Shown here one piece after another: positions 1,572 to 24,815 of a DNA stretch of 64,000 bases. The stretch lies in the NCBI GenBank assembly GCA_000165345.1, contig CM000430.1:640001-704000 (forward strand), given 5' to 3'. Position 1 is the first letter of the stretch. Every line of letters starts with the position of its first letter. The notes under the pieces are model-generated. The model did no database searches and was not told where the DNA came from. It worked only from the letters and a program-made list of their open reading frames with translations. The translations under genes and the position numbers were made by a program.

Positions 1572-4500
1572 TTAAATCCTTGTTCTCCCAGAAAATACAC
1601 TAATGAGTACTTCTAATATTACTGAAGCCAAAATTGGATCTTCCTCAACAATTATGACCTTCAAACTAGAGCTAGTGTAATGTTTCACTTTATTGATCAA
1701 GGCTTTGATTGCTTGTAATATGTGTTGTTCTGCGCGGTGTCTAGAAACTTCATACATTTCTTTTAAGGAAAATATTTCTAATACAACTTGTTTTTCTGAA
1801 TTCGCCACAGCCTTAGAGATAACTTCTTCAAAAGCAGACGAAACAGATCTATTGTCAACATCAACCATGTACAATCTACTTAATGTTTTTGTTAATGGTA
1901 CTGTGTTGTCTCCATATTTTCTATTTGCAACTACGGTAACTCTACCTAGAAGCGATGGATATGAATGACCAATCAATGATAAAATGTTGTGAATTCCTGG
2001 ACTCAATGCGTCTATAGCTAGAACTTGACAGTTAACAAGGTCTGAAATATTTGCATTAGTTAAATAGAATCTCTTAGAAAGTTCAGTTAAAGAGGTACTG
2101 GCAAAAGTTGTTAACTGTTGAACCCAATAATTCATGCTATATAAGCCACTAACATCAGGCTTGGAATGTAGCCTAGTGAATTCGCGAAGTGCTGAATAAT
2201 GAGAGCTAGTAAATGTTGAACTAGAAGGAGCTGGTCTAGAGGCATCCTTGTTTCCGGTGAATTTTGGTAGTGGAGGTCTTGGAGGAGGTATTTTAGTAGG
2301 TCTAGGAGTGGTAGTAGTAGTAGTAGTTCTCATTATACGTCTACTAATTTCCTTCCTAACACTACTTAAGAGATTCTTTGATTTTCTTGGTGTCGTTGCT
2401 GGCGCTCTGAATTGTGGAATTATATTACCTCCAACGATTCCGCTTAAGCTCATCCAGTTTCGGTTGATAGATGTAAGGGTTGCACCAATCCCGCCTGAGC
2501 TTGCGTATTCAAGATAATAGGTTGCAAAGAGATCCAATGCAAGGAAGAAAACTTCAGAGTTTCTCTCGTAGAATGTGAGGTGGATGGAGTCTCTATGAGG
2601 GCTAGTGGAAAAGAATTCATCCATACTTTTAGCTGCTTGGAGGATGTACTCCTTATTTCTTGATTCACTTGTAATCATAGAAGTTGCAATTAATGGGGAG
2701 AGAATAGTAGTGCATCTATATTTTGCAGAGGCAAGTATTTTCTTGTAAAGAGCTTCTACAGCCTTGACCCTACTATTATAAATAAACTTTGTAGAATTAA
2801 GACAGTAGACTCTGGAAACATTGGTCATCCATGGTTCAATTGTGTAAGCATTTAAAGCTCTCACTCCCAACACCTTGATTTCAGAGCTACCAACTGAAGC
2901 GCATTCCTTTGCACTGATACCAAGCTTTACAGCGAGTTCAAGTTGAGCTTTTTCTGATACATCGACTACTAAGCATCCGCATCCAACAACACCTGGATTT
3001 GAGCTTGAAAGAATAAGAGAAAAGTGGTTTGAAGTTGTGGGTTGAGGAATTCTACCGTTGTACATTGATTGAATGAATTCAGAAACTGGTGTACCTGACA
3101 TACATTCTTCATCAGAGTCGAAATAGTATGTTGCTTGTGTACTTGGTCTAATTGAAGGTTGTTGAGATGCTACTGGTCTTAATGGCCCAATAGGTCGCTG
3201 TGGTACTGGTGGTGGAGGTCTTGATGGTCTTGGTGGTCTTGGTGGAGGTCTCATAGGTATTGTGGGTGGCATAGGAGTGGTTGTGTCTGTACCAAGTAAT
3301 TCTTCTGATGTTCTGACATTCATGAAGTATGGTTTTATTTGATCAACAAGAACTTCGAATTTTTCTCTTGTTTCTGTTAAAATAGTGATATGCATCTGCG
3401 AATTATAAAGCAAGAACTCATTTAACGCAGCAGCTAAACCCTCAACAGCGGCTGTAATAATTTGAATAGAGTATATATGACGAGAATCCCATAGACCAAA
3501 AGGTAAAACCAATAATTCACTCAAACGGTGCTTATCTGCAAATTCAAATATTTGCAAGTAGGCAGCTTTGATCAAATCCATCAAGGATTCATATGTACCT
3601 ACTTCATGAATGGCATTATAGAAGTCAAGGTACATTACCTTCTTTAAAGATGAGTACCAAATAGCAGGACTTTGGCGATAATTCGTTGATCTTACTGTAA
3701 CTCCTGATTCCTGAGTAACAGGACTATATGGAAGACCCATTTCTCTCATCAGTTCTTCAAACTTATAAGTCCCGCTTTCCATTATGAAAGCATCGCATGA
3801 GTGAATACCTATTGTAAAATCAGAGTATGCCAAAGAAATCTGAGTTGTTACGGAAGTATATTTATTAATGTATGGATCATTGGCTTCTGAAAGTAAAGTA
3901 AAGAAATTCTTCATTGTTGGGCAAGCAATACCATCGTATTGGTTGAAATCTGAAAGTAGCTGAGTTCTTGGCAAAGGAACCGGAGTTGGAGCTGGAATTG
4001 GAGTTGGGGCTGGAGTTGGGGCTGGAGTTGGGGCTGGAGTTGTACCAGACTGAATCGATTGATTATATGCTACTGGGTTTCTAGTAAATGCCTTTGAGAA
4101 CCCATGCAAGACTATATTGTAGGAATAGAAATCAGGTGCTGGAATAATAATATTGAATGGGCATTTCATATTATTGTTTCCAAAAGCTGTCATAACCCAA
4201 CTTCTCACTTGAAAAGCTGCATTATTAACTCTGGATTCAAAGTTAGTAGAGCCTGGTGTAATGATTGGTAATAGGATGTTTGAAACTTGATCTGCTGAAG
4301 CTCTATCCAAAATACTAGTGTATAACACAGACTCTGGGGCCGAGGATTGAACACAGTATATTGAACCCAATTTAGTACGACGACTTAAATTTGCATTTAA
4401 GTCAAATACAGCTGGGATATGGCTTGTTGTGGCAGGGCATGTAACTCTGGCAGAGTTTAGTAATGCAGTACTATCTGCACTCCTGGAGTCTACGACCAAA

Positions 4501-4694
4501 GCATCGCATGACGTGGAACTTAGAATTGATGGTGAATATGAATCAAGCAATACAACTGATACACACTTTGCTGAATTAAGAGAACCACCTCTATTCGCCA
4601 AGTAGATATCTAAAGCCGAGGTTGAGGCACAGTCAAAGGAGTACACAGCTGCAATTAGCTGAGATAACAGAGTAAAGAGTAATAAATAATTCAT
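1572..4694 (-). CDS. Large secreted protein (1040 aa) with an N-terminal signal peptide, Pro/Thr-rich linkers (PAPTPAPTPAPTP; PPPRPPRPSRPPPPVP; TTTTTTTPRP) and several Cys-containing globular segments.
   Basis: The start at 4694..4692 is ATG (checked). The N-terminus MNYLLLFTLLSQLIAAVYS is a typical signal peptide. The ORF is long and uninterrupted. A GC-motif promoter patch lies upstream at 4869-4881. Confidence 0.75.
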   Translation of the reverse strand: MNYLLLFTLLSQLIAAVYSFDCASTSALDIYLANRGGSLNSAKCVSVVLLDSYSPSILSSTSCDALVVDSRSADSTALLNSARVTCPATTSHIPAVFDLNANLSRRTKLGSIYCVQSSAPESVLYTSILDRASADQVSNILLPIITPGSTNFESRVNNAAFQVRSWVMTAFGNNNMKCPFNIIIPAPDFYSYNIVLHGFSKAFTRNPVAYNQSIQSGTTPAPTPAPTPAPTPIPAPTPVPLPRTQLLSDFNQYDGIACPTMKNFFTLLSEANDPYINKYTSVTTQISLAYSDFTIGIHSCDAFIMESGTYKFEELMREMGLPYSPVTQESGVTVRSTNYRQSPAIWYSSLKKVMYLDFYNAIHEVGTYESLMDLIKAAYLQIFEFADKHRLSELLVLPFGLWDSRHIYSIQIITAAVEGLAAALNEFLLYNSQMHITILTETREKFEVLVDQIKPYFMNVRTSEELLGTDTTTPMPPTIPMRPPPRPPRPSRPPPPVPQRPIGPLRPVASQQPSIRPSTQATYYFDSDEECMSGTPVSEFIQSMYNGRIPQPTTSNHFSLILSSSNPGVVGCGCLVVDVSEKAQLELAVKLGISAKECASVGSSEIKVLGVRALNAYTIEPWMTNVSRVYCLNSTKFIYNSRVKAVEALYKKILASAKYRCTTILSPLIATSMITSESRNKEYILQAAKSMDEFFSTSPHRDSIHLTFYERNSEVFFLALDLFATYYLEYASSGGIGATLTSINRNWMSLSGIVGGNIIPQFRAPATTPRKSKNLLSSVRKEISRRIMRTTTTTTTPRPTKIPPPRPPLPKFTGNKDASRPAPSSSTFTSSHYSALREFTRLHSKPDVSGLYSMNYWVQQLTTFASTSLTELSKRFYLTNANISDLVNCQVLAIDALSPGIHNILSLIGHSYPSLLGRVTVVANRKYGDNTVPLTKTLSRLYMVDVDNRSVSSAFEEVISKAVANSEKQVVLEIFSLKEMYEVSRHRAEQHILQAIKALINKVKHYTSSSLKVIIVEEDPILASVILEVLISVFSGRTRI

Positions 4695-5545: not shown

Positions 5546-7324
5546 ATGAGGCACAGAAAAGAATACAAAGCTAGAGAGCTAAATTCTTTTGAAAATGAGC
5601 ATAGAAGAGAAGATTTAAAAGCAAATATTGAAGAAAGTAGACCAAAAAGTAGCCTATTAAGAATTATTTTGGACTACATAGGTCTGCTATTGTACTATTT
5701 TATAAATATTGCCAAATTAATTTTTCATTACATACTTAATCCAAGATTAAATACATTAAAGGAATTATACCCTCATCATACAGCTGGAAAATATGAACCA
5801 AGAAGTAAATTTGGGTACCGGTTCTTTTTAGTTTGCAATAGAGTGCAAAATATTGGTTTTGGATTTGAATATAGAGGAGTATATTATTTTAGTAATGCAC
5901 ATTTTAATGCAAATACAGATAAATTAAAGATTGATGGGAAGGAAATTAGGCTATACCAGCAAGGATTTACGATGTTATGTTCAAAAAAAGAGCATAATAT
6001 GAAAAAGCCAAGAGATGACGAAGATTTATATTTGTTGAATCCCTATATGCCAACAATTAAAGGAAAGTGTATTTACAAGAATCCCTTCTTTTATTCATTT
6101 TTCCCAATTAATTCTATTTGTAGGGAGTTTACAGGACTACCTATAACTAATAGTAAGGGGGAGCTGGTATCAATATACGATAATTTTAGAAAAGTGAATA
6201 GCTTGGTTTATAATATAATTGGGGACGTTAACTTATGGAAAGAAGAGCAAAGTAATACATGTACTGATTATAAGGTTGAAAGTGTTCAAACAGACCGCAA
6301 GGATATACAAGTTTTTAGGGTAATTTCTAAATTTGAGGATGGATGTGATAATTTTGAAAATAATGAAATTGTTGGATACTTTTTCAAATATAACTCAATT
6401 AATTACATTTCTGGAGCATTTGTTGATGAATTTGGGAATCTGAGTTTGCCAATAGCACTGGAAGATATTAATGAAGCTGAAAATACTTTAAAATATTCAA
6501 ATTTATACAGGGATTTATGGGTTTCAGTACCAAATTCTATGCATAATTTAAGTTTGCCAGACCAAGATGAATATGCTTTTGTATTAAATATTACTAGGAA
6601 CAACCAGAAAGAGATTAAGGGTAGGATAAAAATAGATATTAATCAGCAATTTTGGGCAGAGTTTGTGGGAGTTCCAAATAGAGAATTTTTAGGACTACCA
6701 ATATTAAATAGAAATGACCAATTAATAGGAGTATATAGTGATTTTAACATAGAAAATAGTTTTGGAAGACTCAAATATTCAGTTTATCTTGGAGGGATAA
6801 ATACATTTAAGAATTTTTTTTTAAGAATAAGTTTGAGAAATCAAAATACCATACAAACTCTTGAAACTGATTTTGATATGGAAATCCTTGAGCAAGTTGT
6901 TTCTCTTTGTTCTATGGGTACTGAAGATAATGATAAATCCTGCAATAAACTTGTAAATAGGGTTCTTTTTGGTGTTGGAAGTGAAGATATTTCTCAACAA
7001 ACTTATGAAAATCTTGAATTAATATTAAAAAAAAGATATCAAGATTCATCTTTGTACCCTGATAGCATTATTTCTGTTTCTAATAACCCAAATATTAGAT
7101 ACACTCAAGTACAAGATAAGAAGTTCATTATAGCAAATACTAACTGGATAGGGTATTCTTACCTTAATAGTGGCAACTTATTCCCATTTAATTCTTCTAA
7201 AAGTCTCCTAATCATATTATCTAACACTTCTACCGTATTAACTGAAGAGCTTCTTGAGAGTTATTATAAAAAAACTCATAAAACCAAACGTGGATTTTAT
7301 CTCAAGTTTATTTCAAATAAATAA
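5546..7324 (+). CDS. Hypothetical type II membrane protein (592 aa). It has a single N-terminal transmembrane anchor and a large Asn-rich ecto/lumenal domain with many N-x-S/T sites.
   Basis: ATG at 5546 verified. There is a hydrophobic segment LLRIILDYIGLLLYYFINIAKLIF after a basic N-terminus. I recognise no conserved enzymatic motif. Confidence 0.65.
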   Translation: MRHRKEYKARELNSFENEHRREDLKANIEESRPKSSLLRIILDYIGLLLYYFINIAKLIFHYILNPRLNTLKELYPHHTAGKYEPRSKFGYRFFLVCNRVQNIGFGFEYRGVYYFSNAHFNANTDKLKIDGKEIRLYQQGFTMLCSKKEHNMKKPRDDEDLYLLNPYMPTIKGKCIYKNPFFYSFFPINSICREFTGLPITNSKGELVSIYDNFRKVNSLVYNIIGDVNLWKEEQSNTCTDYKVESVQTDRKDIQVFRVISKFEDGCDNFENNEIVGYFFKYNSINYISGAFVDEFGNLSLPIALEDINEAENTLKYSNLYRDLWVSVPNSMHNLSLPDQDEYAFVLNITRNNQKEIKGRIKIDINQQFWAEFVGVPNREFLGLPILNRNDQLIGVYSDFNIENSFGRLKYSVYLGGINTFKNFFLRISLRNQNTIQTLETDFDMEILEQVVSLCSMGTEDNDKSCNKLVNRVLFGVGSEDISQQTYENLELILKKRYQDSSLYPDSIISVSNNPNIRYTQVQDKKFIIANTNWIGYSYLNSGNLFPFNSSKSLLIILSNTSTVLTEELLESYYKKTHKTKRGFYLKFISNK

Positions 7325-7673: not shown

Positions 7674-8933
7674 TTATGCATTAGTATATAATATCATCAT
7701 ATTTAGGAAGATGATTAATAAGCTTTGTAAAATATGATAATTTGAGAATATTGGTAAAGAATTACTTTTTCTAAAATGTTTCTTGTAAAATCTTCTAAGT
7801 CCATGTTTAAGATCAAATGGTCCTCTATCAATAATTTCATAATCAATAATATCCAATCCATTTTCATTTTTGCATTCTTCTGGATTTAATAAACATTTAC
7901 AATCATTCGAATTAGGATTATATGTACAATGACAGCCAGGATTGAATGGATTAATATAACATCCACACAATTTTGAATATGGATTTAAATTACATGGGCA
8001 TCCAATACTATAAGGACTTGTTGAGCATCTTGGTATTATTGGAAGAGTAATATCATTAGTACAAGAAATAATAGTTTTACATTCATTAGTCATAGGATAT
8101 GTAATATTATATTGATTATTTTGTATATGATTATATATTGATTGATCATTATAACAGAAGCAATCAATTCCCATTGGATTAGTATAACATTTATATTCAT
8201 TATTATGTATACAATAAATTGGATTATTAATACACATGAATTTTATATTATTAGTAGTTTTTAAACTTGCTTGACAGAATGGATTATGTTCATTATTAAT
8301 GTTATCAATATTTCTTTTCCATAGAATAATTTTACCATATTTATTATTAAATTCATTTTCTATTAATGTAATTCTTTCAATATCATTATAAGTTGGATAA
8401 TCAATTAATATATTTTTGATTATTGATAAATCAAATATTATACCTTTTAATTTACCATTTGGTAAATTACATTTTTCATATCCACTAAATAATTTATTTG
8501 AATTTTCTGCATATATCTCATCAATTACAATATCTTGTATATGTATTCCTAATATATTGGAAATATGTTCTTTTAATGCCATTGTAATTTGTTTATAGTT
8601 ATCTTTTCTTTCTTCACAAAATGAAGATTCTAATAATGCTAATGTAATTGTTTGAATATGATTATGCTTTCCAATATCACTATCAGTATTTTCTTCTTTT
8701 TCCCGTCCTTTAGTAGTTGGTAATTTTGTATTATTATTGTTAATAGGAATTGAAGTGGAAGTTTTAGAAGTGAAGGATTTTCTAGTAGAGGTGGTGGTAG
8801 TAGAAGTTGTTGTTGTTGTTATAAGAATGGGTAATTTGAGTAATAATTTATCTTCTTTACTTGCAAAAAGTTGAGAATCATTACCATTACTCATTCCATC
8901 AAATTCTATATCATTATTTGGTATAGAGTTCAT
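7674..8933 (-). CDS. Thr-rich mucin-like protein with a C-terminal cysteine-repeat domain (5 x C-x-C-x2-N-P/D units). It may be the 3' part of a larger mucin gene that includes the upstream poly-Thr tract.
   Basis: ATG at 8933..8931 verified. No signal peptide follows this Met. There is a TTTTTSTTTTST tract. The repeats are CFCYNDQ, CPCNLNP, CGCYINP, CHCTYNP and CKCLLNP. A Thr-coding frame from the repeat region ends with TAA at 8982..8980, one frame off from this ORF. Confidence 0.6.
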   Translation of the reverse strand: MNSIPNNDIEFDGMSNGNDSQLFASKEDKLLLKLPILITTTTTSTTTTSTRKSFTSKTSTSIPINNNNTKLPTTKGREKEENTDSDIGKHNHIQTITLALLESSFCEERKDNYKQITMALKEHISNILGIHIQDIVIDEIYAENSNKLFSGYEKCNLPNGKLKGIIFDLSIIKNILIDYPTYNDIERITLIENEFNNKYGKIILWKRNIDNINNEHNPFCQASLKTTNNIKFMCINNPIYCIHNNEYKCYTNPMGIDCFCYNDQSIYNHIQNNQYNITYPMTNECKTIISCTNDITLPIIPRCSTSPYSIGCPCNLNPYSKLCGCYINPFNPGCHCTYNPNSNDCKCLLNPEECKNENGLDIIDYEIIDRGPFDLKHGLRRFYKKHFRKSNSLPIFSNYHILQSLLIIFLNMMILYTNA

Positions 8934-8939
8934 TTTGAG

Positions 8940-9700
<761 letters not shown>

Positions 9701-9709
9701 AGTTTGGTT

Positions 9710-12043
<2,334 letters not shown>

Positions 12044-12410
12044 TTTCAAATTCTTCAATTTACATAAAAATATATATTTCTTCTTTTACTACTCTATTAT
12101 TTATCTTAATTTATATCATAAATCTTTAAAGTTAAGCTATTTTATACTATCTTAATTTATGATGAAGATTTTTTTTTAATATATATTTAAATAATTTCTA
12201 TTTCTCATATATTCAACTTTTTAATTTTTTTTTAATATAAATTTTTAATACTTTATTTTAAGTGACTGCCACTATTAAAAATACTACTACTATTATTACA
12301 TTTTTAGAGGTAATTTTTTTTATTTATTGTAATAAATATAATTTCATCATATTGTTTTATTTTTGCATGTATTATTTAAATTTACAAACTTTTGCCCGCT
12401 GACTTTATTT

Positions 12411-12735: not shown

Positions 12736-14712
12736 ATGGACGATTTTAGCTTTTCCTTAAATAAATTAAGAAAAGAACAAGAAAAAGAAAGAAAAAAAGT
12801 ACTTGAAAAAAAACAAAGAGAAAAAAAATTTCAAGAAATCAACAAATTTAAAATTGATGATTACTTATCTAATATTGAAAGAACCTTTATTAAACAACAA
12901 AATAATATTTCAAATGAAGTGTATTTAGAACATAAAAACCCAAATAATCAAATTTTTCAAGAAGAAAATAAATACTCTTGGATACTTAAGCTAAATTTAA
13001 AAGATTATAATAATAATAATAATAATAATAATAGTAATAGTAATTCAAAATTTCCAAATAATGGTGAAACTGATCAAGTAATACTCCCAAATAACCTACT
13101 TAAAATATTAAGTAGTGATGAATCAATATATCCACTATATTTTAATATAAAATGTTTAAACCATCATATTTCTGAAAATATTAATCCAATTGAAACTCAT
13201 TGTGGAGTATTGGACTATTCCGAAGAACCAGGATACATTTCTTTACCGAATAAAGTTCTTAGATGTTTAAATATTAATCCAAATGATTCAGATTTTAAAA
13301 GTAATAAACCAATAATATGGATTCAAATTACATACAAAAAACTTTTAAAAGGATCTTTTGCTTCTTTTGAAATCTTAAATAATCAGGATATATTCAAAAT
13401 GCATGATATTGAATCTTTACTTGAAAGTTATTTAAGAAATCATTTTCTTACTTTGACAATTGGAGATACATTAATGATTAATCAACCAAATTATTCTAGT
13501 AATAACTATTGTATTTCTTTAATTAAAGTAAAACATTTAGAACCTGATAATTCGATTAGTTTAATCAATACTGATATTTCATTAGATATTACATATAAAG
13601 ATTCAAAGAATGAACAAACAATTCAAGATCATGCTGAAAATACCATTGAAAATTCAATCAGACTGATGAATATTGGTGATATTATTCATTTTGATGATAA
13701 ATTGGATGATTTAATTAATTTCAAATTAGATATACCATTTAATTTGAAAAAAGTCTTTCTAAATGAATCAGATACTGAAAATAATACAAAATTGAATATT
13801 TCAATCATTTCAAATCATTATTATGATATTTTTGTTTCATTTCCTCCCATTTTTGAAGCATCATCACATCTTCACATTTTCAGATCGTTTCCTGAAGACT
13901 ACTGCTACTACTCTAATTCTAACAACAATAATAAAAGCAAAAATACTAACCTGGTCATATCAAGTAACGAATTTATTAACTACTTAAAAACATTAGAAAG
14001 AAATATTTCTTGTAATCAAGACTCATCTTCATTGTTATTATTATTTCCCTCGATACTTTTTATTACCATCCAAAAACATAAAAATTCATCCTCAATTAAC
14101 AATGATATTATTTCAAATAATGAAAAATGCTCATTATCTTCTAGTATTCAAGTAAATATCCAATATTATAAAAAGGAAAGTACAATAGACGTAATCAATC
14201 AACCAATAGAAAACGAATTTTCAACTTGTATTAATTGTAAAAGAAAAATACCGAGTGATAATTTAGATCTACATTCTTTACAATGCGAAAAAATGTATAA
14301 AAGATGCAATCAATGCGATCTTATTTTAAAAAAGAGTGATTTTGAAAAACATACTCACTGTAATAAATGTATTAAATTTGGATTAAGCTTAGACCAAATT
14401 CAAATTCATGACAAATTATATCATCAATTTACTCAATGTAAACTTTGTAACCAAGATAATATTAAACCTATACAACTTACAATACATCAAACACAAGAAT
14501 GTCCAAAAAGGATAATACTTTGTAGGTATTGTAATAATTTTGTACAAGCCGGTACCGATGGACATTATGTTGATTATAAAGATAAGTATTATTATAACTT
14601 AACATCACACGAATCTTATTGTGGATCTAGAACAACAAATTGTAATATATGTAATAAAATTGTATTAATTAAAGAATTAAAATTTCATATTGATCTAGTA
14701 CATGCAAAATAA
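12736..14712 (+). CDS. UFD1-domain protein with a C-terminal array of TRAF-type/C2HC zinc fingers (658 aa).
   Basis: ATG at 12736 verified. Residues about 110-290 align to the UFD1 N-domain (ILPxxLLxxL...YPLYFNI...THCGVLDYSEEPGYISLP...LRNHFLTLTIGDTLMINQ). The C-terminus has repeated C-x2-C-x11-H-x3-C units. Confidence 0.8.
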   Translation: MDDFSFSLNKLRKEQEKERKKVLEKKQREKKFQEINKFKIDDYLSNIERTFIKQQNNISNEVYLEHKNPNNQIFQEENKYSWILKLNLKDYNNNNNNNNSNSNSKFPNNGETDQVILPNNLLKILSSDESIYPLYFNIKCLNHHISENINPIETHCGVLDYSEEPGYISLPNKVLRCLNINPNDSDFKSNKPIIWIQITYKKLLKGSFASFEILNNQDIFKMHDIESLLESYLRNHFLTLTIGDTLMINQPNYSSNNYCISLIKVKHLEPDNSISLINTDISLDITYKDSKNEQTIQDHAENTIENSIRLMNIGDIIHFDDKLDDLINFKLDIPFNLKKVFLNESDTENNTKLNISIISNHYYDIFVSFPPIFEASSHLHIFRSFPEDYCYYSNSNNNNKSKNTNLVISSNEFINYLKTLERNISCNQDSSSLLLLFPSILFITIQKHKNSSSINNDIISNNEKCSLSSSIQVNIQYYKKESTIDVINQPIENEFSTCINCKRKIPSDNLDLHSLQCEKMYKRCNQCDLILKKSDFEKHTHCNKCIKFGLSLDQIQIHDKLYHQFTQCKLCNQDNIKPIQLTIHQTQECPKRIILCRYCNNFVQAGTDGHYVDYKDKYYYNLTSHESYCGSRTTNCNICNKIVLIKELKFHIDLVHAK

Positions 14713-16496: not shown

Positions 16497-18533
16497 TTAT
16501 TGCTGATATGACCATGGACCAAATTTATTTTTCTGAATTTCCTTGCATTTAATACTTAATTCCTTCAAGTGATCCTTGTTGATACTCTTAATCAGCAACG
16601 TTTTAGTAATATTCAAAAGTCTTTCCAATGAAGACTTTAGCTTGTCCTTAATTTCATATATGCTTTTGCTTGGAGTTTGTCTTTTTGTGATTCCAACTTC
16701 CTTATTGTTTTTATTACAAGAAGAACTATTATAAGTATTGTTAGTACTAGTAATATCAACAGAAGATTCCGGTATAGAGCTATGATCGCTTTGTTCAAAA
16801 ATACTTGTCATTATCCCATCATAGTATTCCTTATATCTTGTAATGATTTGATTGTTAACGTCAGTTTTTTTAGTAAAACCAGCTTCCAAACTTTGAGAAG
16901 GCTGGTTTTGCTCGGGAATCAAACGATTTTCGCAAGAATTCGACGGATCAATACATTTTAAATCATCATATTGAGAATCTGCGATTGTACTGTTTAAAGC
17001 AGGCTTCTCTTCATCCTGTTCTTCCTTTTCCTTTACTTCGTCATTGTCTAAAAAATACTCGAAGCTTTGCATATTCAAATCAGTAGAATTTATAGGTATA
17101 CTATCTCTAATCTTGTGATTATCATCTTTGAAAAATTCAATGCAATCATAAGAGGGATTGGATGAATATTTGAGCTCCATTTCTTGGATATAATCAACAT
17201 CCAGATCTATTTCAAACTGAGATTCTGTGATAAGTTCACTCCATACATGAGGTAAAGAAATTATATTAGGATCATTTGTTAGATTACCATGATTTACAAC
17301 ATTATAATCACCAGAATCATTTATTAAATCTGAATCAGGAAATCCAAAGTCATTACTTTTGTGGTTAATATTATTATTGTTAGTATTATTAGAAAACAAT
17401 GTATTAAAGTTATTAAAGAATCGAATTACATTACTTTTTCCTAGTTCATCTTTGATATTCAAAAATACATTTCCAAAGATTCCATTCTTAGTTGTTGGAG
17501 TTGAGTATTTGATTGCATTCATAATATCTGCAATATCATTTGAATAAAGTATATTGGATTCAATTCTTTGAAGCCTATATAATATAAGTTTATATAATGG
17601 AACCCAACCTTGCTGAAAGAAATCATCCCAAAATTTTCCTATGATATTTAAAGGTATACTATATGAGAAAAGAGTTAGAAACCAATCAGTAGCTAACATA
17701 TCTATAGTGCCTCCCTGTCTAATAATATGATCCCATATAATATGTAATTCTTTTTCCATTAATTGATTCAAAATTAAACATTTGACTCTTAATCCCGGCA
17801 ATCCTGATACAAACATTTCTCTCATGCCGTAATTAAACATTAAAGAAACCAATAATTCAAATGCCTGTTCTTCACTACTTGAATGCCAAAGTATACATCC
17901 AACTAAAAAATTCATACCTTGTACATATCCAACATCTATATCCATCAATGAATATATTAACAAAATCTTACTCAAGTAACTTTTACCTTCAAATTTGAAA
18001 TAAGAAATTGATGGATACGTCCTACATACATCCATATATATACTATTCATTACTCTATTACTAAATATTTTATTTATTACACCATTTTCTGTCAAATCTA
18101 TTTCAATTATATCGCTTCCCTCCATTCTTACAATGTACTCGACTATATTTATTAATTCTCTATAAATGGTTGTCAATCCTAATTCATTAGATTTCGAAAC
18201 CTCTAACCAATTCTGCATTCTCACACATCTTCCTTGATTGTCTTTATCACAATCACAATGAGGCCCTACTTTATCAAGCTTTAGAAATCGAACAAAACTA
18301 AGTCTTTTTCTATCATTTGTTTTTTTTCTCAAATCCGAATTTAGGCATCCTGGTTCTTTCGTATTCGTCTCCTCTTGCTTCTTCTCAAATCCTGATTCTG
18401 ATTCAGAATCAGATTCTACTTCATTCTTTGATGGCTGCATTTCTTCTACATTATTCAATGAGGGAACAAAATAATTATATGCTTTTTTCACTGCTAGCAA
18501 GGTCACAATATTTGTTTCCTCTTTCAATTCCAT
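16497..18533 (-). CDS. TBC-domain Rab GTPase-activating protein (678 aa).
   Basis: ATG at 18533 verified. TBC signature motifs are present: IDVGYVQGMNFLVG and the arginine-finger region; ...DWFLTLFSY... Confidence 0.85.
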   Translation of the reverse strand: MELKEETNIVTLLAVKKAYNYFVPSLNNVEEMQPSKNEVESDSESESGFEKKQEETNTKEPGCLNSDLRKKTNDRKRLSFVRFLKLDKVGPHCDCDKDNQGRCVRMQNWLEVSKSNELGLTTIYRELINIVEYIVRMEGSDIIEIDLTENGVINKIFSNRVMNSIYMDVCRTYPSISYFKFEGKSYLSKILLIYSLMDIDVGYVQGMNFLVGCILWHSSSEEQAFELLVSLMFNYGMREMFVSGLPGLRVKCLILNQLMEKELHIIWDHIIRQGGTIDMLATDWFLTLFSYSIPLNIIGKFWDDFFQQGWVPLYKLILYRLQRIESNILYSNDIADIMNAIKYSTPTTKNGIFGNVFLNIKDELGKSNVIRFFNNFNTLFSNNTNNNNINHKSNDFGFPDSDLINDSGDYNVVNHGNLTNDPNIISLPHVWSELITESQFEIDLDVDYIQEMELKYSSNPSYDCIEFFKDDNHKIRDSIPINSTDLNMQSFEYFLDNDEVKEKEEQDEEKPALNSTIADSQYDDLKCIDPSNSCENRLIPEQNQPSQSLEAGFTKKTDVNNQIITRYKEYYDGIMTSIFEQSDHSSIPESSVDITSTNNTYNSSSCNKNNKEVGITKRQTPSKSIYEIKDKLKSSLERLLNITKTLLIKSINKDHLKELSIKCKEIQKNKFGPWSYQQ

Positions 18534-23111: not shown

Positions 23112-24815
23112 ATGCCAGAACTTTATGAACTTCCATCATATTCAGCATTGAAAGAATATGCAAACAAACAAAAATGCATACACCTGAGAGATCTCCTTAA
23201 AAATGAAGTCAGAAATTCGTGTTTAACTGTCAATTTTGGAGAGATTTTTATGGATTTTACAAGACAAAACTTAGATGAAGAAGGTTTCGAGCTTTTGATT
23301 AAATTAGCAGCAGAATCGAATTTGATGGAAAAAATTAAGTTGCAGCTCAAAGGTGGGATTATTAATAGTACAGAAAAGAGAGCAGTCTTACACACTGCTC
23401 TACGTTCAAAAAGTAATATTCCTATTACTCTTTCCTCCGGTCAGAACGTACTAAATGATGTAAATGAGGTAAATAGACGAATTTTCAAGTTTGCAAATGC
23501 TATAAGAAAAGGTGAGCTTCTTGGCTCCACAGGAAAAATACTGAAAGACGTTATCTGTATTGGAATTGGAGGTAGTTACCTTGGACCTGAGTTTGTCTAT
23601 GAGGCATTAAGAACAACTCAGGAAGGCTTTGAAGCTTCCATGGGAAGAAGACTACGCTTTTTAGCTAATGTTGATCCTATAGACATTAGAAGAGCTACTG
23701 AAGGATTACATCCTGAAACTACTCTTGTTATTATTGTTAGCAAAACTTTCACAACAGCTGAAACCATTCTTAATGCAAAAACTATTAAAGAATGGCTACA
23801 CAAAGCTCTTAAAAGTGAAACTGCAGTAAGTAAGCATCTTGCTGCGGTTAGTACTAATATTAAGGCTACCTCCGATTTTGGAATTCCTGTTGACCACGTA
23901 TTTGGATTTTGGGATTGGGTTGGTGGTAGGTTTTCTGTCTGCAGTGCAGTTGGTCTTGTTCCGCTTTCAATCCATTTTGGCGCCAACCTCGTGCAGGAAT
24001 TTTTGGATGGCTGTTGGGACATGGACCAACATTATGAAACTGCTCCAGTTAGTAAGAATTTACCAGTCTTATTGGGTCTTCTTAGTGTCTATAATTCGAC
24101 ATTTATGGATAAGAGTTGTGTTGCAGTTCTCCCATATTGTCAGGCACTATGCAAATTCCCTGCACATGTACAACAATTACTTATGGAGAGTAATGGAAAG
24201 AGTTCAAGTATTGATGGAAATATGCTTCATGATAAGATTAAGACTGGCGCCATATTCTTTGGCGAGCCAGGCACTAATGCTCAACACAGTTTTTATCAGC
24301 TTTTGCATCAAGGCAGAAATACAACAAATTGCGAGTTTATTGGATTTGCAAAATCTCAATGCGACTCTCAGATCTTAGGTGATCCAATTTCTAATCATGA
24401 TGAGCTAATGTGTAATTTCTTTGCTCAGCCTGATGCATTGGCAATTGGTAAAACTCAGAGAGAGTTGAATCTAGAGGATTGTCCGGAAAATCTGATTCCT
24501 CATAAGTTATTCCAAGGAAATAGATCTTCTATTTCTCTCTTATTACCAATCTGTAGTGCATATTATATTGGCCAACTTCTTGCACTGTATGAACACAGAA
24601 CTGCAGTGGAGGGATTTATTCTAAATATTAACAGCTTTGATCAATATGGGGTGGAACTTGGTAAGGTTCTTGCTAAAGATATAAGAAACATTATTTCACT
24701 AAAAAAGACCAATTCATCTCCTGAAATTATTCAAAATAAGGAGGATAAGATTCCTGGGCCTACCAGGAGATTAATTGACTTATATTTGAGGGTTTCAAAG
24801 AGCCTGACGAATTGA
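23112..24815 (+). CDS. GPI: Glucose-6-phosphate isomerase (567 aa).
   Basis: ATG verified. Full-length PGI similarity including the GIGGSYLGPEF and FGFWDWVGGRFS motifs. Confidence 0.95.
   Translation: MPELYELPSYSALKEYANKQKCIHLRDLLKNEVRNSCLTVNFGEIFMDFTRQNLDEEGFELLIKLAAESNLMEKIKLQLKGGIINSTEKRAVLHTALRSKSNIPITLSSGQNVLNDVNEVNRRIFKFANAIRKGELLGSTGKILKDVICIGIGGSYLGPEFVYEALRTTQEGFEASMGRRLRFLANVDPIDIRRATEGLHPETTLVIIVSKTFTTAETILNAKTIKEWLHKALKSETAVSKHLAAVSTNIKATSDFGIPVDHVFGFWDWVGGRFSVCSAVGLVPLSIHFGANLVQEFLDGCWDMDQHYETAPVSKNLPVLLGLLSVYNSTFMDKSCVAVLPYCQALCKFPAHVQQLLMESNGKSSSIDGNMLHDKIKTGAIFFGEPGTNAQHSFYQLLHQGRNTTNCEFIGFAKSQCDSQILGDPISNHDELMCNFFAQPDALAIGKTQRELNLEDCPENLIPHKLFQGNRSSISLLLPICSAYYIGQLLALYEHRTAVEGFILNINSFDQYGVELGKVLAKDIRNIISLKKTNSSPEIIQNKEDKIPGPTRRLIDLYLRVSKSLTN

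Follow-up and report, generated by a model that had tools for sequence, protein, structure and literature searches.

A conserved 18-cysteine module, on present evidence confined to Cryptosporidium, in a female-expressed mucin

The window we analysed is a stretch of 64,000 nucleotides of Cryptosporidium parvum chromosome 2 (GenBank assembly GCA_000165345.1, contig CM000430.1, positions 640,001 to 704,000), AT-rich with a GC content of 21-41%, and the element of interest in it is a cysteine repeat carried by a 419-aa open reading frame (ORF) at 7674..8933 (-). At roughly even odds (a probability of about 0.5), we read this repeat as part of a disulfide-rich module with a structural role, placed where a mucin that is made by females and resides in the oocyst meets the membrane, to which it is probably attached through glycosylphosphatidylinositol (GPI). 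The ORF is almost certainly one end of a longer, misassembled gene, and the topology and expression of the complete protein bear directly on what the module may do.

Four units of the form C-x-C-x2-N-P start at residues 312, 323, 334 and 345 of the ORF, with an exact period of 11 residues (33 nt). The pattern C.C..NP was found four times in a six-frame translation of the whole 64 kb, each time within this array, and when the Cys-rich segment was shuffled 20,000 times with its composition preserved, three or more matches never arose (629 shuffles had one and 11 had two). The original prediction had described five tandem units spaced 8-11 residues apart. Four of them are real and spaced by exactly 11 residues, but the fifth, CFCYNDQ, is 54 residues upstream, lacks the N-P and is not in tandem with the others; the interval assigned to the repeat at the time, 7898-8040 (residues 299-346), cuts the last unit, which extends to C354 at 7872, and excludes CFCYNDQ (Table 1). 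A better definition of the element is the loop C-x2-[N/S/D]-P-x(2-4)-C, and the same loop is found with a single Cys at residues 234 (CINNPIYC), 249 (CYTNPMGIDC) and 303 (CSTSPYSIGC). In paralogues the CFC unit reads CFCSDPNS or CFCQDPNS (for example CFCSDPNSEQC), and because these versions are regular, CFCYNDQ is a degenerate member of the loop series. Recent tandem duplication at the DNA level was considered as an origin of the array and rejected, since no 33-bp array was reported by Tandem Repeats Finder; the units are therefore old and diverged.

The gene that encodes the repeat is longer than the ORF. A published proteomics table lists cgd2_3150 as UFD1, cgd2_3170 as a Rab-GTPase-TBC protein and cgd2_3200 as glucose-6-phosphate isomerase, and this gene order identifies the 419-aa ORF as cgd2_3130 and the upstream 782-aa ORF at 9710..12058 (-) as cgd2_3140, both labelled ‘Uncharacterized protein’ in the published proteomics table. 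The 419-aa ORF sits in a 90%-identity cluster with C. parvum XP_626507.1 / EAK88702.1 / Q5CTG2 / CPATCC_000605, also of 419 aa, and an exact-sequence look-up found it on the chromosome of C. parvum IOWA-ATCC. cgd2_3140 and cgd2_3130 are almost certainly a single gene for a protein of 1,541 aa, and their separation an artefact of assembly and annotation at (ACT)n repeats. The window copy of the merged gene has 4,370 nt, which is not divisible by 3, and upstream of the 419-aa ORF poly-Thr is encoded in three successive frames with stops between them. The long-read assembly of C. parvum IOWA-ATCC (L004, CP044421.1) instead has one stop-free frame of 1,555 codons that runs from the signal peptide to the C-terminus; its product of 1,541 aa begins MIINKKISVFLLL... 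and ends ...MMILYTNA. C. tyzzeri (L003) likewise has one frame without stops here, of 1,530 codons, and single ORFs with the same architecture are present in C. canis (1,392 aa), C. ryanae (874 aa), C. xiaoi (1,026 aa) and C. bovis. Within the affected part of the repeat, the window and the IOWA-ATCC long-read sequence differ by 10 indels (one of them a gap of 256 bp) and 180 mismatches, and the flanks are identical. Introns or separate genes as the source of the three-frame poly-Thr were rejected, given the open frames in the long-read and C. tyzzeri sequences and the confinement of all differences to the repeat. The gene calls of the IOWA-ATCC record still show two genes despite the open frame.

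The complete protein consists, in order, of a leader, a cysteine-free N-terminal region of ~700 residues, a poly-Thr stalk, an alpha/beta domain, the 18-Cys module, a basic motif and a hydrophobic tail. It is 27% Thr overall and 69% Thr over residues 696-1105 (~410 residues), where the longest run of Thr is 32. This is the long Ser/Thr/Pro-rich region in a secreted protein by which mucins are recognized, so the original description of the protein as mucin-like holds for the full ~1,541 aa, and the stalk is presumably O-GalNAc-glycosylated. All 20 cysteines fall within the last 314 residues. Hydrophobic N-termini are also present in the orthologues of C. canis, C. ryanae, C. xiaoi and C. bovis. 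At the other end, 12 of 12 family members have a hydrophobic window 0-5 residues from the C-terminus (mean Kyte-Doolittle value 1.8-2.7), and inspection together with the Kyte-Doolittle values finds small residues before it and no cytoplasmic tail after it in all 12. The leader and the hydrophobic C-terminal end together look like the signature of a GPI-attachment signal, a heuristic prediction. The GPFDLKHGLRRFYKKHFRKS motif just before the tail is kept in C. parvum, C. canis, C. ryanae, C. xiaoi and C. bovis, and P372, K376, G378, F382, F387, R388 and S390 are invariant as far as C. serpentis. A basic cluster thus precedes the hydrophobic stretch, on its luminal side, where a type I transmembrane anchor would not usually have one; if the omega site lies in KSNS, the basic motif would remain on the mature protein beside the membrane. 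The Cys module is at the C-terminal end of the protein, 47 residues before the hydrophobic tail, and because the GPI-signal-like tail follows so closely, the module would be membrane-proximal, at the foot of the stalk. The earlier picture of a head on a mucin stem thus has the topology reversed, with the cysteine-free N-terminal ~700 aa at the distal end.

The unit of conservation in the family is the whole 18-Cys module, of which the array forms the C-terminal half. Its Cys framework is C-x13-C-I-x2-P-x2-C ... C-F/Y-C ... C-x5-C ... C-x8-C-x-C-x8-C-x-C-x5-NPG-C-x-C-x8-C-x-C-x6-C, which is found in the family members. All 20 cysteines of the protein are invariant in the C. serpentis orthologue at 41% overall identity, so the lack of conservation in orthologues that was to refute the original prediction is clearly not seen, and 16 of the 18 module cysteines are invariant over orthologues, paralogues and a metagenome relative. 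Over the 52-residue array, identity to C. parvum is 41/52 in C. serpentis, 48/52 in C. ryanae and 45/52 in C. canis. Three 50-residue blocks that cover the module (full-length residues 1351-1500) have 69-80% identity across four species, compared with ~20% in the N-terminal and mucin parts, and the array blocks at 1401-1500 are the best conserved along the protein (74-80% in the four species). The loop between C260 and C285 varies in length, from 7 residues in paralogues through 24 in C. parvum to 56 in C. ryanae. Six tyrosines beside Cys or N-P (Y250, Y261, Y308, Y319, Y326 and Y338) are also invariant among orthologues down to C. serpentis; they may pack against disulfides.

Members of the family are present in 10 named Cryptosporidium species (parvum, tyzzeri, hominis, meleagridis, ubiquitum, canis, ryanae, bovis, xiaoi and serpentis), and further members are a second, tandem paralogue in C. 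bovis and C. xiaoi, its close relative P0012, from a sequencing run, and P0011, from a metagenome contig in ENA. When a HMMER profile was searched exhaustively against 1.84 billion representatives, 5 proteins were recovered: those of C. serpentis, C. canis (1,392 aa) and C. ryanae (874 aa), a 194-aa protein of C. bovis/C. xiaoi and the 194-aa ENA metagenome protein. A word-indexed search with the module profile gave only 3 proteins, adding a relative of 278 aa that was assembled by Logan from a sequencing run, and one with the 59-residue array profile gave none, yields that limit what can be said of the distribution outside Cryptosporidium. A scan of JGI metagenomes gave 26 pattern matches, of which 0 were confirmed. 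On present evidence the module is a Cryptosporidium family whose sole possible outsider is the ENA contig (L005 141-725, ERZ809599, 837 bp), which has a GC content of 44-52%, unlike the known AT-rich Cryptosporidium genomes. Its protein, P0011, keeps 16 Cys and lacks both the equivalents of the last two (C347 and C354) and the hydrophobic tail; the contig may be truncated or frameshifted.

The second paralogue is immediately downstream of the orthologue in C. xiaoi (L001 6142-8585) and C. bovis (L002 6184-8585), and C. parvum showed no such copy. Where the orthologue has poly-Thr, this paralogue has a region rich in His/Pro and in N-glycosylation sites, after which come the alpha/beta domain, the Cys module and a GPI-like tail. 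Its annotation as two genes (of 552 or 535 aa, and 194 aa) is due to a GTAAGT...TTTACAG intron that was not recognised, at about L001 7797-7954, the splicing of which restores ...RFTFILDVNQDSSYLYK, matching the contiguous P0012.

The module matches no known family. The 419-aa ORF protein and 7 relatives, searched against Pfam at E<=10, gave no relevant family, and phmmer and profile searches of the PDB gave only chance matches (E ~1), in agreement with the original view that this is a regular Cys-rich module outside the EGF, TSP1, Apple and Kazal spacings. No EGF-like or laminin-EGF model matched in Pfam, and the unit, with 2 Cys per 11 residues, has no conserved Gly/aromatic pattern, where EGF modules have six or eight Cys in ~40 residues with C-x-C-x5-G-x2-C; TSP1, Apple/PAN, Kazal and other apicomplexan adhesive domains were represented by zero Pfam families in the window protein and the 7 relatives. 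The oocyst wall proteins of Cryptosporidium (COWPs) were absent from the 5 proteins of the exhaustive profile search, and the anchor-like tail also sets the protein apart from that family. One annotation does suggest a relationship: the C. canis orthologue P0008 (KAJ1610821.1) is named ‘putative transcriptional repressor EZH1 domain-containing protein’. The module does hold C-x-C motifs, and it contains a ‘PGCxC’ string that we take to resemble the CXC region of EZH2, but it is very unlikely to be a CXC domain with a zinc cluster, whether like the pre-SET domain of EZH1/EZH2 or like that of tesmin/TSO1. No Pfam CXC model matched any of the 8 members at E<=10, nor was an EZH2 or LIN54 chain among the PDB sequence or profile matches at E<=10 (the PDB sequence file presumably includes both). 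CXC domains belong to intracellular, nuclear proteins, whereas the signal peptide, mucin stalk and GPI-like hydrophobic tail point to an oxidising extracellular compartment. Furthermore, C. serpentis and the paralogues have Pro in place of the one His that lies within a CxC (C334-H-C336). The EZH1 name therefore appears to be a false annotation, set off by the C-x-C motifs, unsupported by any Pfam CXC model and contradicted by the secretory context.

Published data place the gene in the sexual stages. Expression of cgd2_3140, as log2 counts per million (log2CPM), rises from 1.34 in sorted asexual parasites to 7.02 in females from culture (in vitro) and 7.93 in those from infection in vivo (Supplementary File 2 of Tandel et al. 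2019, PMC6877471), a log fold change (logFC) of 5.69 for female versus asexual, or ~50-fold up (PMC6877471). The clusters of a time course in the same study give 2.36, -2.24, 2.56; -0.76, 0.03, -0.81; and 7.22, 6.79, 6.73 for cgd2_3130, and 1.08, 1.06, 1.16; 0.20, 0.86, -1.47; and 8.16, 7.97, 8.02 for cgd2_3140 (PMC6877471), in the order sporozoite, 24 h and 48 h, which was inferred from the sample sheet and from the pattern of COWP6 in a neighbouring cluster. Neither half is expressed in sporozoites or in 24 h cultures, and both are at 48 h; they are co-regulated and specific to sexual stages, as expected of one transcript. The cgd2_3130 protein has been quantified by tandem mass tag mass spectrometry in excysted oocysts (PMC12548878 S7 Table). 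In delta-cowp8 oocysts it is 1.6-fold higher (logFC +0.68, with 5.15 in the false discovery rate column; the values for COWP8 are -1.63 and 5.89; PMC12548878 S7 Table). This rise could be compensation or could reflect a co-assembly link with the oocyst wall, and as unrelated proteins have similar values it may be unspecific.

These data weigh against the surface adhesin or lectin-like role proposed originally, in which the module would be a ligand-binding domain for attachment of invasive stages to host cells or mucus. Such a role is disfavoured by both topology and expression, and we consider it improbable. A module beside the membrane anchor and beneath a stalk of >400 residues is badly placed to reach a host ligand, transcripts are absent from sporozoites and from the 24 h meront cultures, which make merozoites, and no lectin or adhesin family was detected by Pfam in the 8 members. 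The extreme conservation of the loops is nonetheless what a binding surface would have, the protein is found in excysted oocyst/sporozoite material, and other Cryptosporidium mucins have been implicated in attachment (PMC7371110). It is a little less probable still that the protein is a surface coat of the female gamete or zygote, with the module acting in male-female recognition or fusion or in fertilisation signalling. That idea would account for the expression already seen in unfertilised in vitro females (log2CPM 7.0), for the predicted surface anchoring and for the very strong conservation across the genus, but the protein persists in mature oocysts, and neither Pfam nor the exhaustive profile search revealed similarity to known gamete fusion or recognition proteins.

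If the module is instead the structural part of an extracellular oocyst protein, as we favour, the chemistry of its cysteines would be that of disulfides rather than of metal binding. In each unit a nearest-neighbour disulfide could close a short loop, C-x2-N-P-x4-C, that turns at Asn-Pro, and the single residue of C-x-C would join one loop to the next. The product would be a rigid, densely stapled rod, resistant to proteases and chemicals, that links the flexible glycosylated stalk to the membrane anchor. Such a rod would suit survival of the oocyst, for example in the glycoprotein material between the membrane of the sporozoite or zygote and the inner oocyst wall. Nearest-neighbour loops are favoured because the number of invariant Cys is even, because the metagenome relative has lost exactly the pair C347 and C354 and keeps the other 16 Cys, and because the C260-C285 loop ranges from 7 to 56 residues. 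Structure prediction, which had been proposed as a check on the disulfide pattern, is informative for one half of the module only. AlphaFold2 with a 3-sequence alignment of residues 92-358 gave a mean predicted local distance difference test score (pLDDT) of 38.6; with an 8-sequence alignment the module reached 54, and the helical N-terminal half was at 73-85 for most of its residues, but the array was at ~30, with no fold predicted.

Two points count against this reading, one against its loop topology and one against a role confined to the oocyst. To judge from the sequence, a stacked ladder would fit the constant 11-residue period equally well. And as transcripts made in females can pass maternally and serve sporozoite functions (bioRxiv 10.64898/2026.09.01.748511), an observation that also favours attachment by sporozoites, the protein may have a later role in sporozoites by way of maternally stored mRNA.

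A serious rival, possible though clearly less probable than the structural rod and partly compatible with it, is that the cysteines are a handle for covalent cross-linking: intermolecular disulfides with the cysteine-rich COWP matrix or with other copies of the protein would fix the mucin in the oocyst wall, and the module would not be a self-contained rod. The gene is female-specific like those of the COWPs, its protein is in oocysts, COWPs also have a Cys at every ~10th-12th residue (PMC12548878), and the protein is increased 1.6-fold in delta-cowp8 oocysts. The even number of invariant cysteines and their paired loss in P0011, however, fit intramolecular pairing. COWPs have no membrane anchors and this protein has a GPI-like tail, the exhaustive profile search gave no relation to COWPs, and the change in delta-cowp8 is modest and similar to that of unrelated proteins.

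The alpha/beta domain that precedes the module may, from its predicted model, be SEA-like, although Pfam SEA (PF01390) did not match at E<=10. Further down its list of structural matches are sarcoglycan/dystroglycan, Gpr126, PCDH15 MAD12, TMPRSS6 and the ectodomain of IA-2; generic ferredoxin-like folds had only slightly lower scores, and confidence in the model is low. The order of parts suggests, but does not establish, a plan like that of animal membrane mucins, with a stalk, SEA domain, Cys-rich module and anchor.

Cryptosporidium is a major cause of diarrhoea in children, and it is transmitted by its oocysts, which resist disinfectants. Few oocyst components other than COWPs are known; this mucin is a testable candidate for the membrane anchor of the oocyst glycoprotein layer. 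One female-specific mucin of 1,541 aa in place of two gene models affects all expression, proteomic and knockout analyses that use the Iowa II models. The genus-restricted and extremely conserved 18-Cys module could be used to place tags, as a target for antibodies or as an epitope for diagnosis independent of species, and its structure would probably add a new small disulfide-rich fold.

Table 1. Coordinates of the gene, its parts and its neighbours in the window
Feature	Position	Strand	Remarks
Whole gene, cgd2_3140 and cgd2_3130 merged	7674..12043	-	Almost certainly one gene; frame broken within poly-Thr in the window
Signal-peptide-like N-terminus MIINKKISVFLLLIIIVIFSFN	11978..12043	-	Read by eye from the sequence
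Mis-assembled or collapsed poly-Thr (ACT)n part	8983..9933	-	All differences between window and long-read sequence fall here
Alpha/beta domain	8298..8654	-	ORF residues 94-212; Cys C106 and C155 conserved; predicted beta-alpha-beta-beta-alpha-beta
18-cysteine module	7872..8276	-	ORF residues 220-354; unit of family conservation
Module N-terminal sub-domain	8049..8282	-	Residues 218-295; predicted helical; holds CINNP, CYTNP, CFCYNDQ and a variable insertion loop
CFCYNDQ, degenerate fifth unit	8142..8162	-	Residue 258, upstream of the array
Repeat array	7872..8027	-	Coordinates verified by translation
U0 CSTSPYSIG	8001-8027	-	
U1 CPCNLNPYSKL	7968-8000	-	CPCNLNP at residue 312 (window 8000)
U2 CGCYINPFNPG	7935-7967	-	CGCYINP at residue 323 (window 7967)
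U3 CHCTYNPNSND	7902-7934	-	CHCTYNP at residue 334 (window 7934)
U4 CKCLLNPEEC	7872-7901	-	CKCLLNP at residue 345 (window 7901)
Basic juxtamembrane motif GPFDLKHGLRRFYKKHFRKS	7764..7823	-	Between Cys module and hydrophobic tail
Terminal hydrophobic stretch ILQSLLIIFLNMMILYTNA	7677..7733	-	After small residues KSNS; no cytoplasmic tail
UFD1	12736-14712		
RabGAP-TBC gene	16497-18533		
Phosphoglucose isomerase	23112-24815		

Pfam domains are absent from the neighbours cgd2_3110 (1572-4694 (-), 1,040 aa) and cgd2_3120 (5546-7324 (+), 592 aa). Of these, cgd2_3110 is very abundant, with a log2 average of 22.3 in the oocyst proteome and a log2CPM of 10-12 in all sorted RNA samples. cgd2_3140 shares the OrthoMCL group OG5_129869 with cgd5_420 (Tandel 2019 Supplementary File 4), which may be a chromosome 5 paralogue of the N-terminal/mucin part or a low-complexity artefact. 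The cgd2_3130/cgd2_3140 gene is not in the published Muc1-Muc24 list, where Muc10 is cgd2_3290, and no mention of Q5CTG2 or of cgd2_312x-315x was found in the main texts of the searchable literature. The protein is already in databases as hypothetical; the merged gene model, its expression context and the possible SEA-like neighbour of the module are absent from the papers searched.

Several known systems share some features with this protein. In the array two Cys recur per 11-12 residues, as in the 12-residue coils of the Tenebrio antifreeze beta-helix, and its units resemble the short Cys-closed loop of 6-8 residues (~7) with a Pro turn of Bowman-Birk/SFTI inhibitors. Its cysteines are at positions 1 and 3, however, there is no sequence or fold match, and these are analogies only. 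CXC zinc-cluster domains (the pre-SET CXC of EZH1/2 and the CRC of tesmin/TSO1) have clustered C-x-C motifs in common with the module, but they are nuclear and bind Zn, whereas the module has an extracellular context and no Pfam or PDB match. COWP1-9 are likewise female-expressed, secreted oocyst proteins with a Cys every ~10-12 residues (PMC12548878). They differ in having neither membrane anchors nor mucin stalks, and no sequence relation to them was detected. To our knowledge, C-x-C-x2-N-P is not a COWP repeat type.

The classical membrane mucin of C. parvum is GP900 (cgd7_4020), which was not recovered in the exhaustive profile search. The two proteins have in common a signal peptide, long Thr-rich regions for O-glycosylation, few cysteines, all outside the mucin parts, and an anchor in the membrane at the C-terminus (PMC9111948). 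The anchor of GP900, however, is a true transmembrane domain with a cytoplasmic tail of ~50 aa, and GP900 is micronemal in sporozoites and merozoites and absent in sexual stages (PMC9111948), whereas the cgd2_3130 mucin has a GPI-like tail and is female-specific.

The plan of the protein may be like that of the metazoan tethered mucins MUC1, MUC16, MUC13 and MUC17, which have a stalk, a SEA domain, in some cases EGF-like modules, and an anchor. The Cryptosporidium protein differs from these in having no Pfam SEA or EGF match, no visible autoproteolysis motif of the G/SVVV type and a GPI-like anchor instead of a transmembrane helix, with the low confidence of the AlphaFold2 model to be kept in mind; any resemblance would be convergent or too remote for sequence. 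A more speculative synthesis, which we offer tentatively, is that Cryptosporidium independently evolved a membrane mucin on the animal SEA-mucin plan, whose Cys part would be a new fold, a ladder of disulfide-closed Asn-Pro loops joined through C-x-C. The mucin would then supply the long-sought membrane end of the tethers, made of O-GalNAc glycoproteins, between sporozoites and the inner oocyst wall, or would be joined by disulfides to the COWPs of the wall itself.

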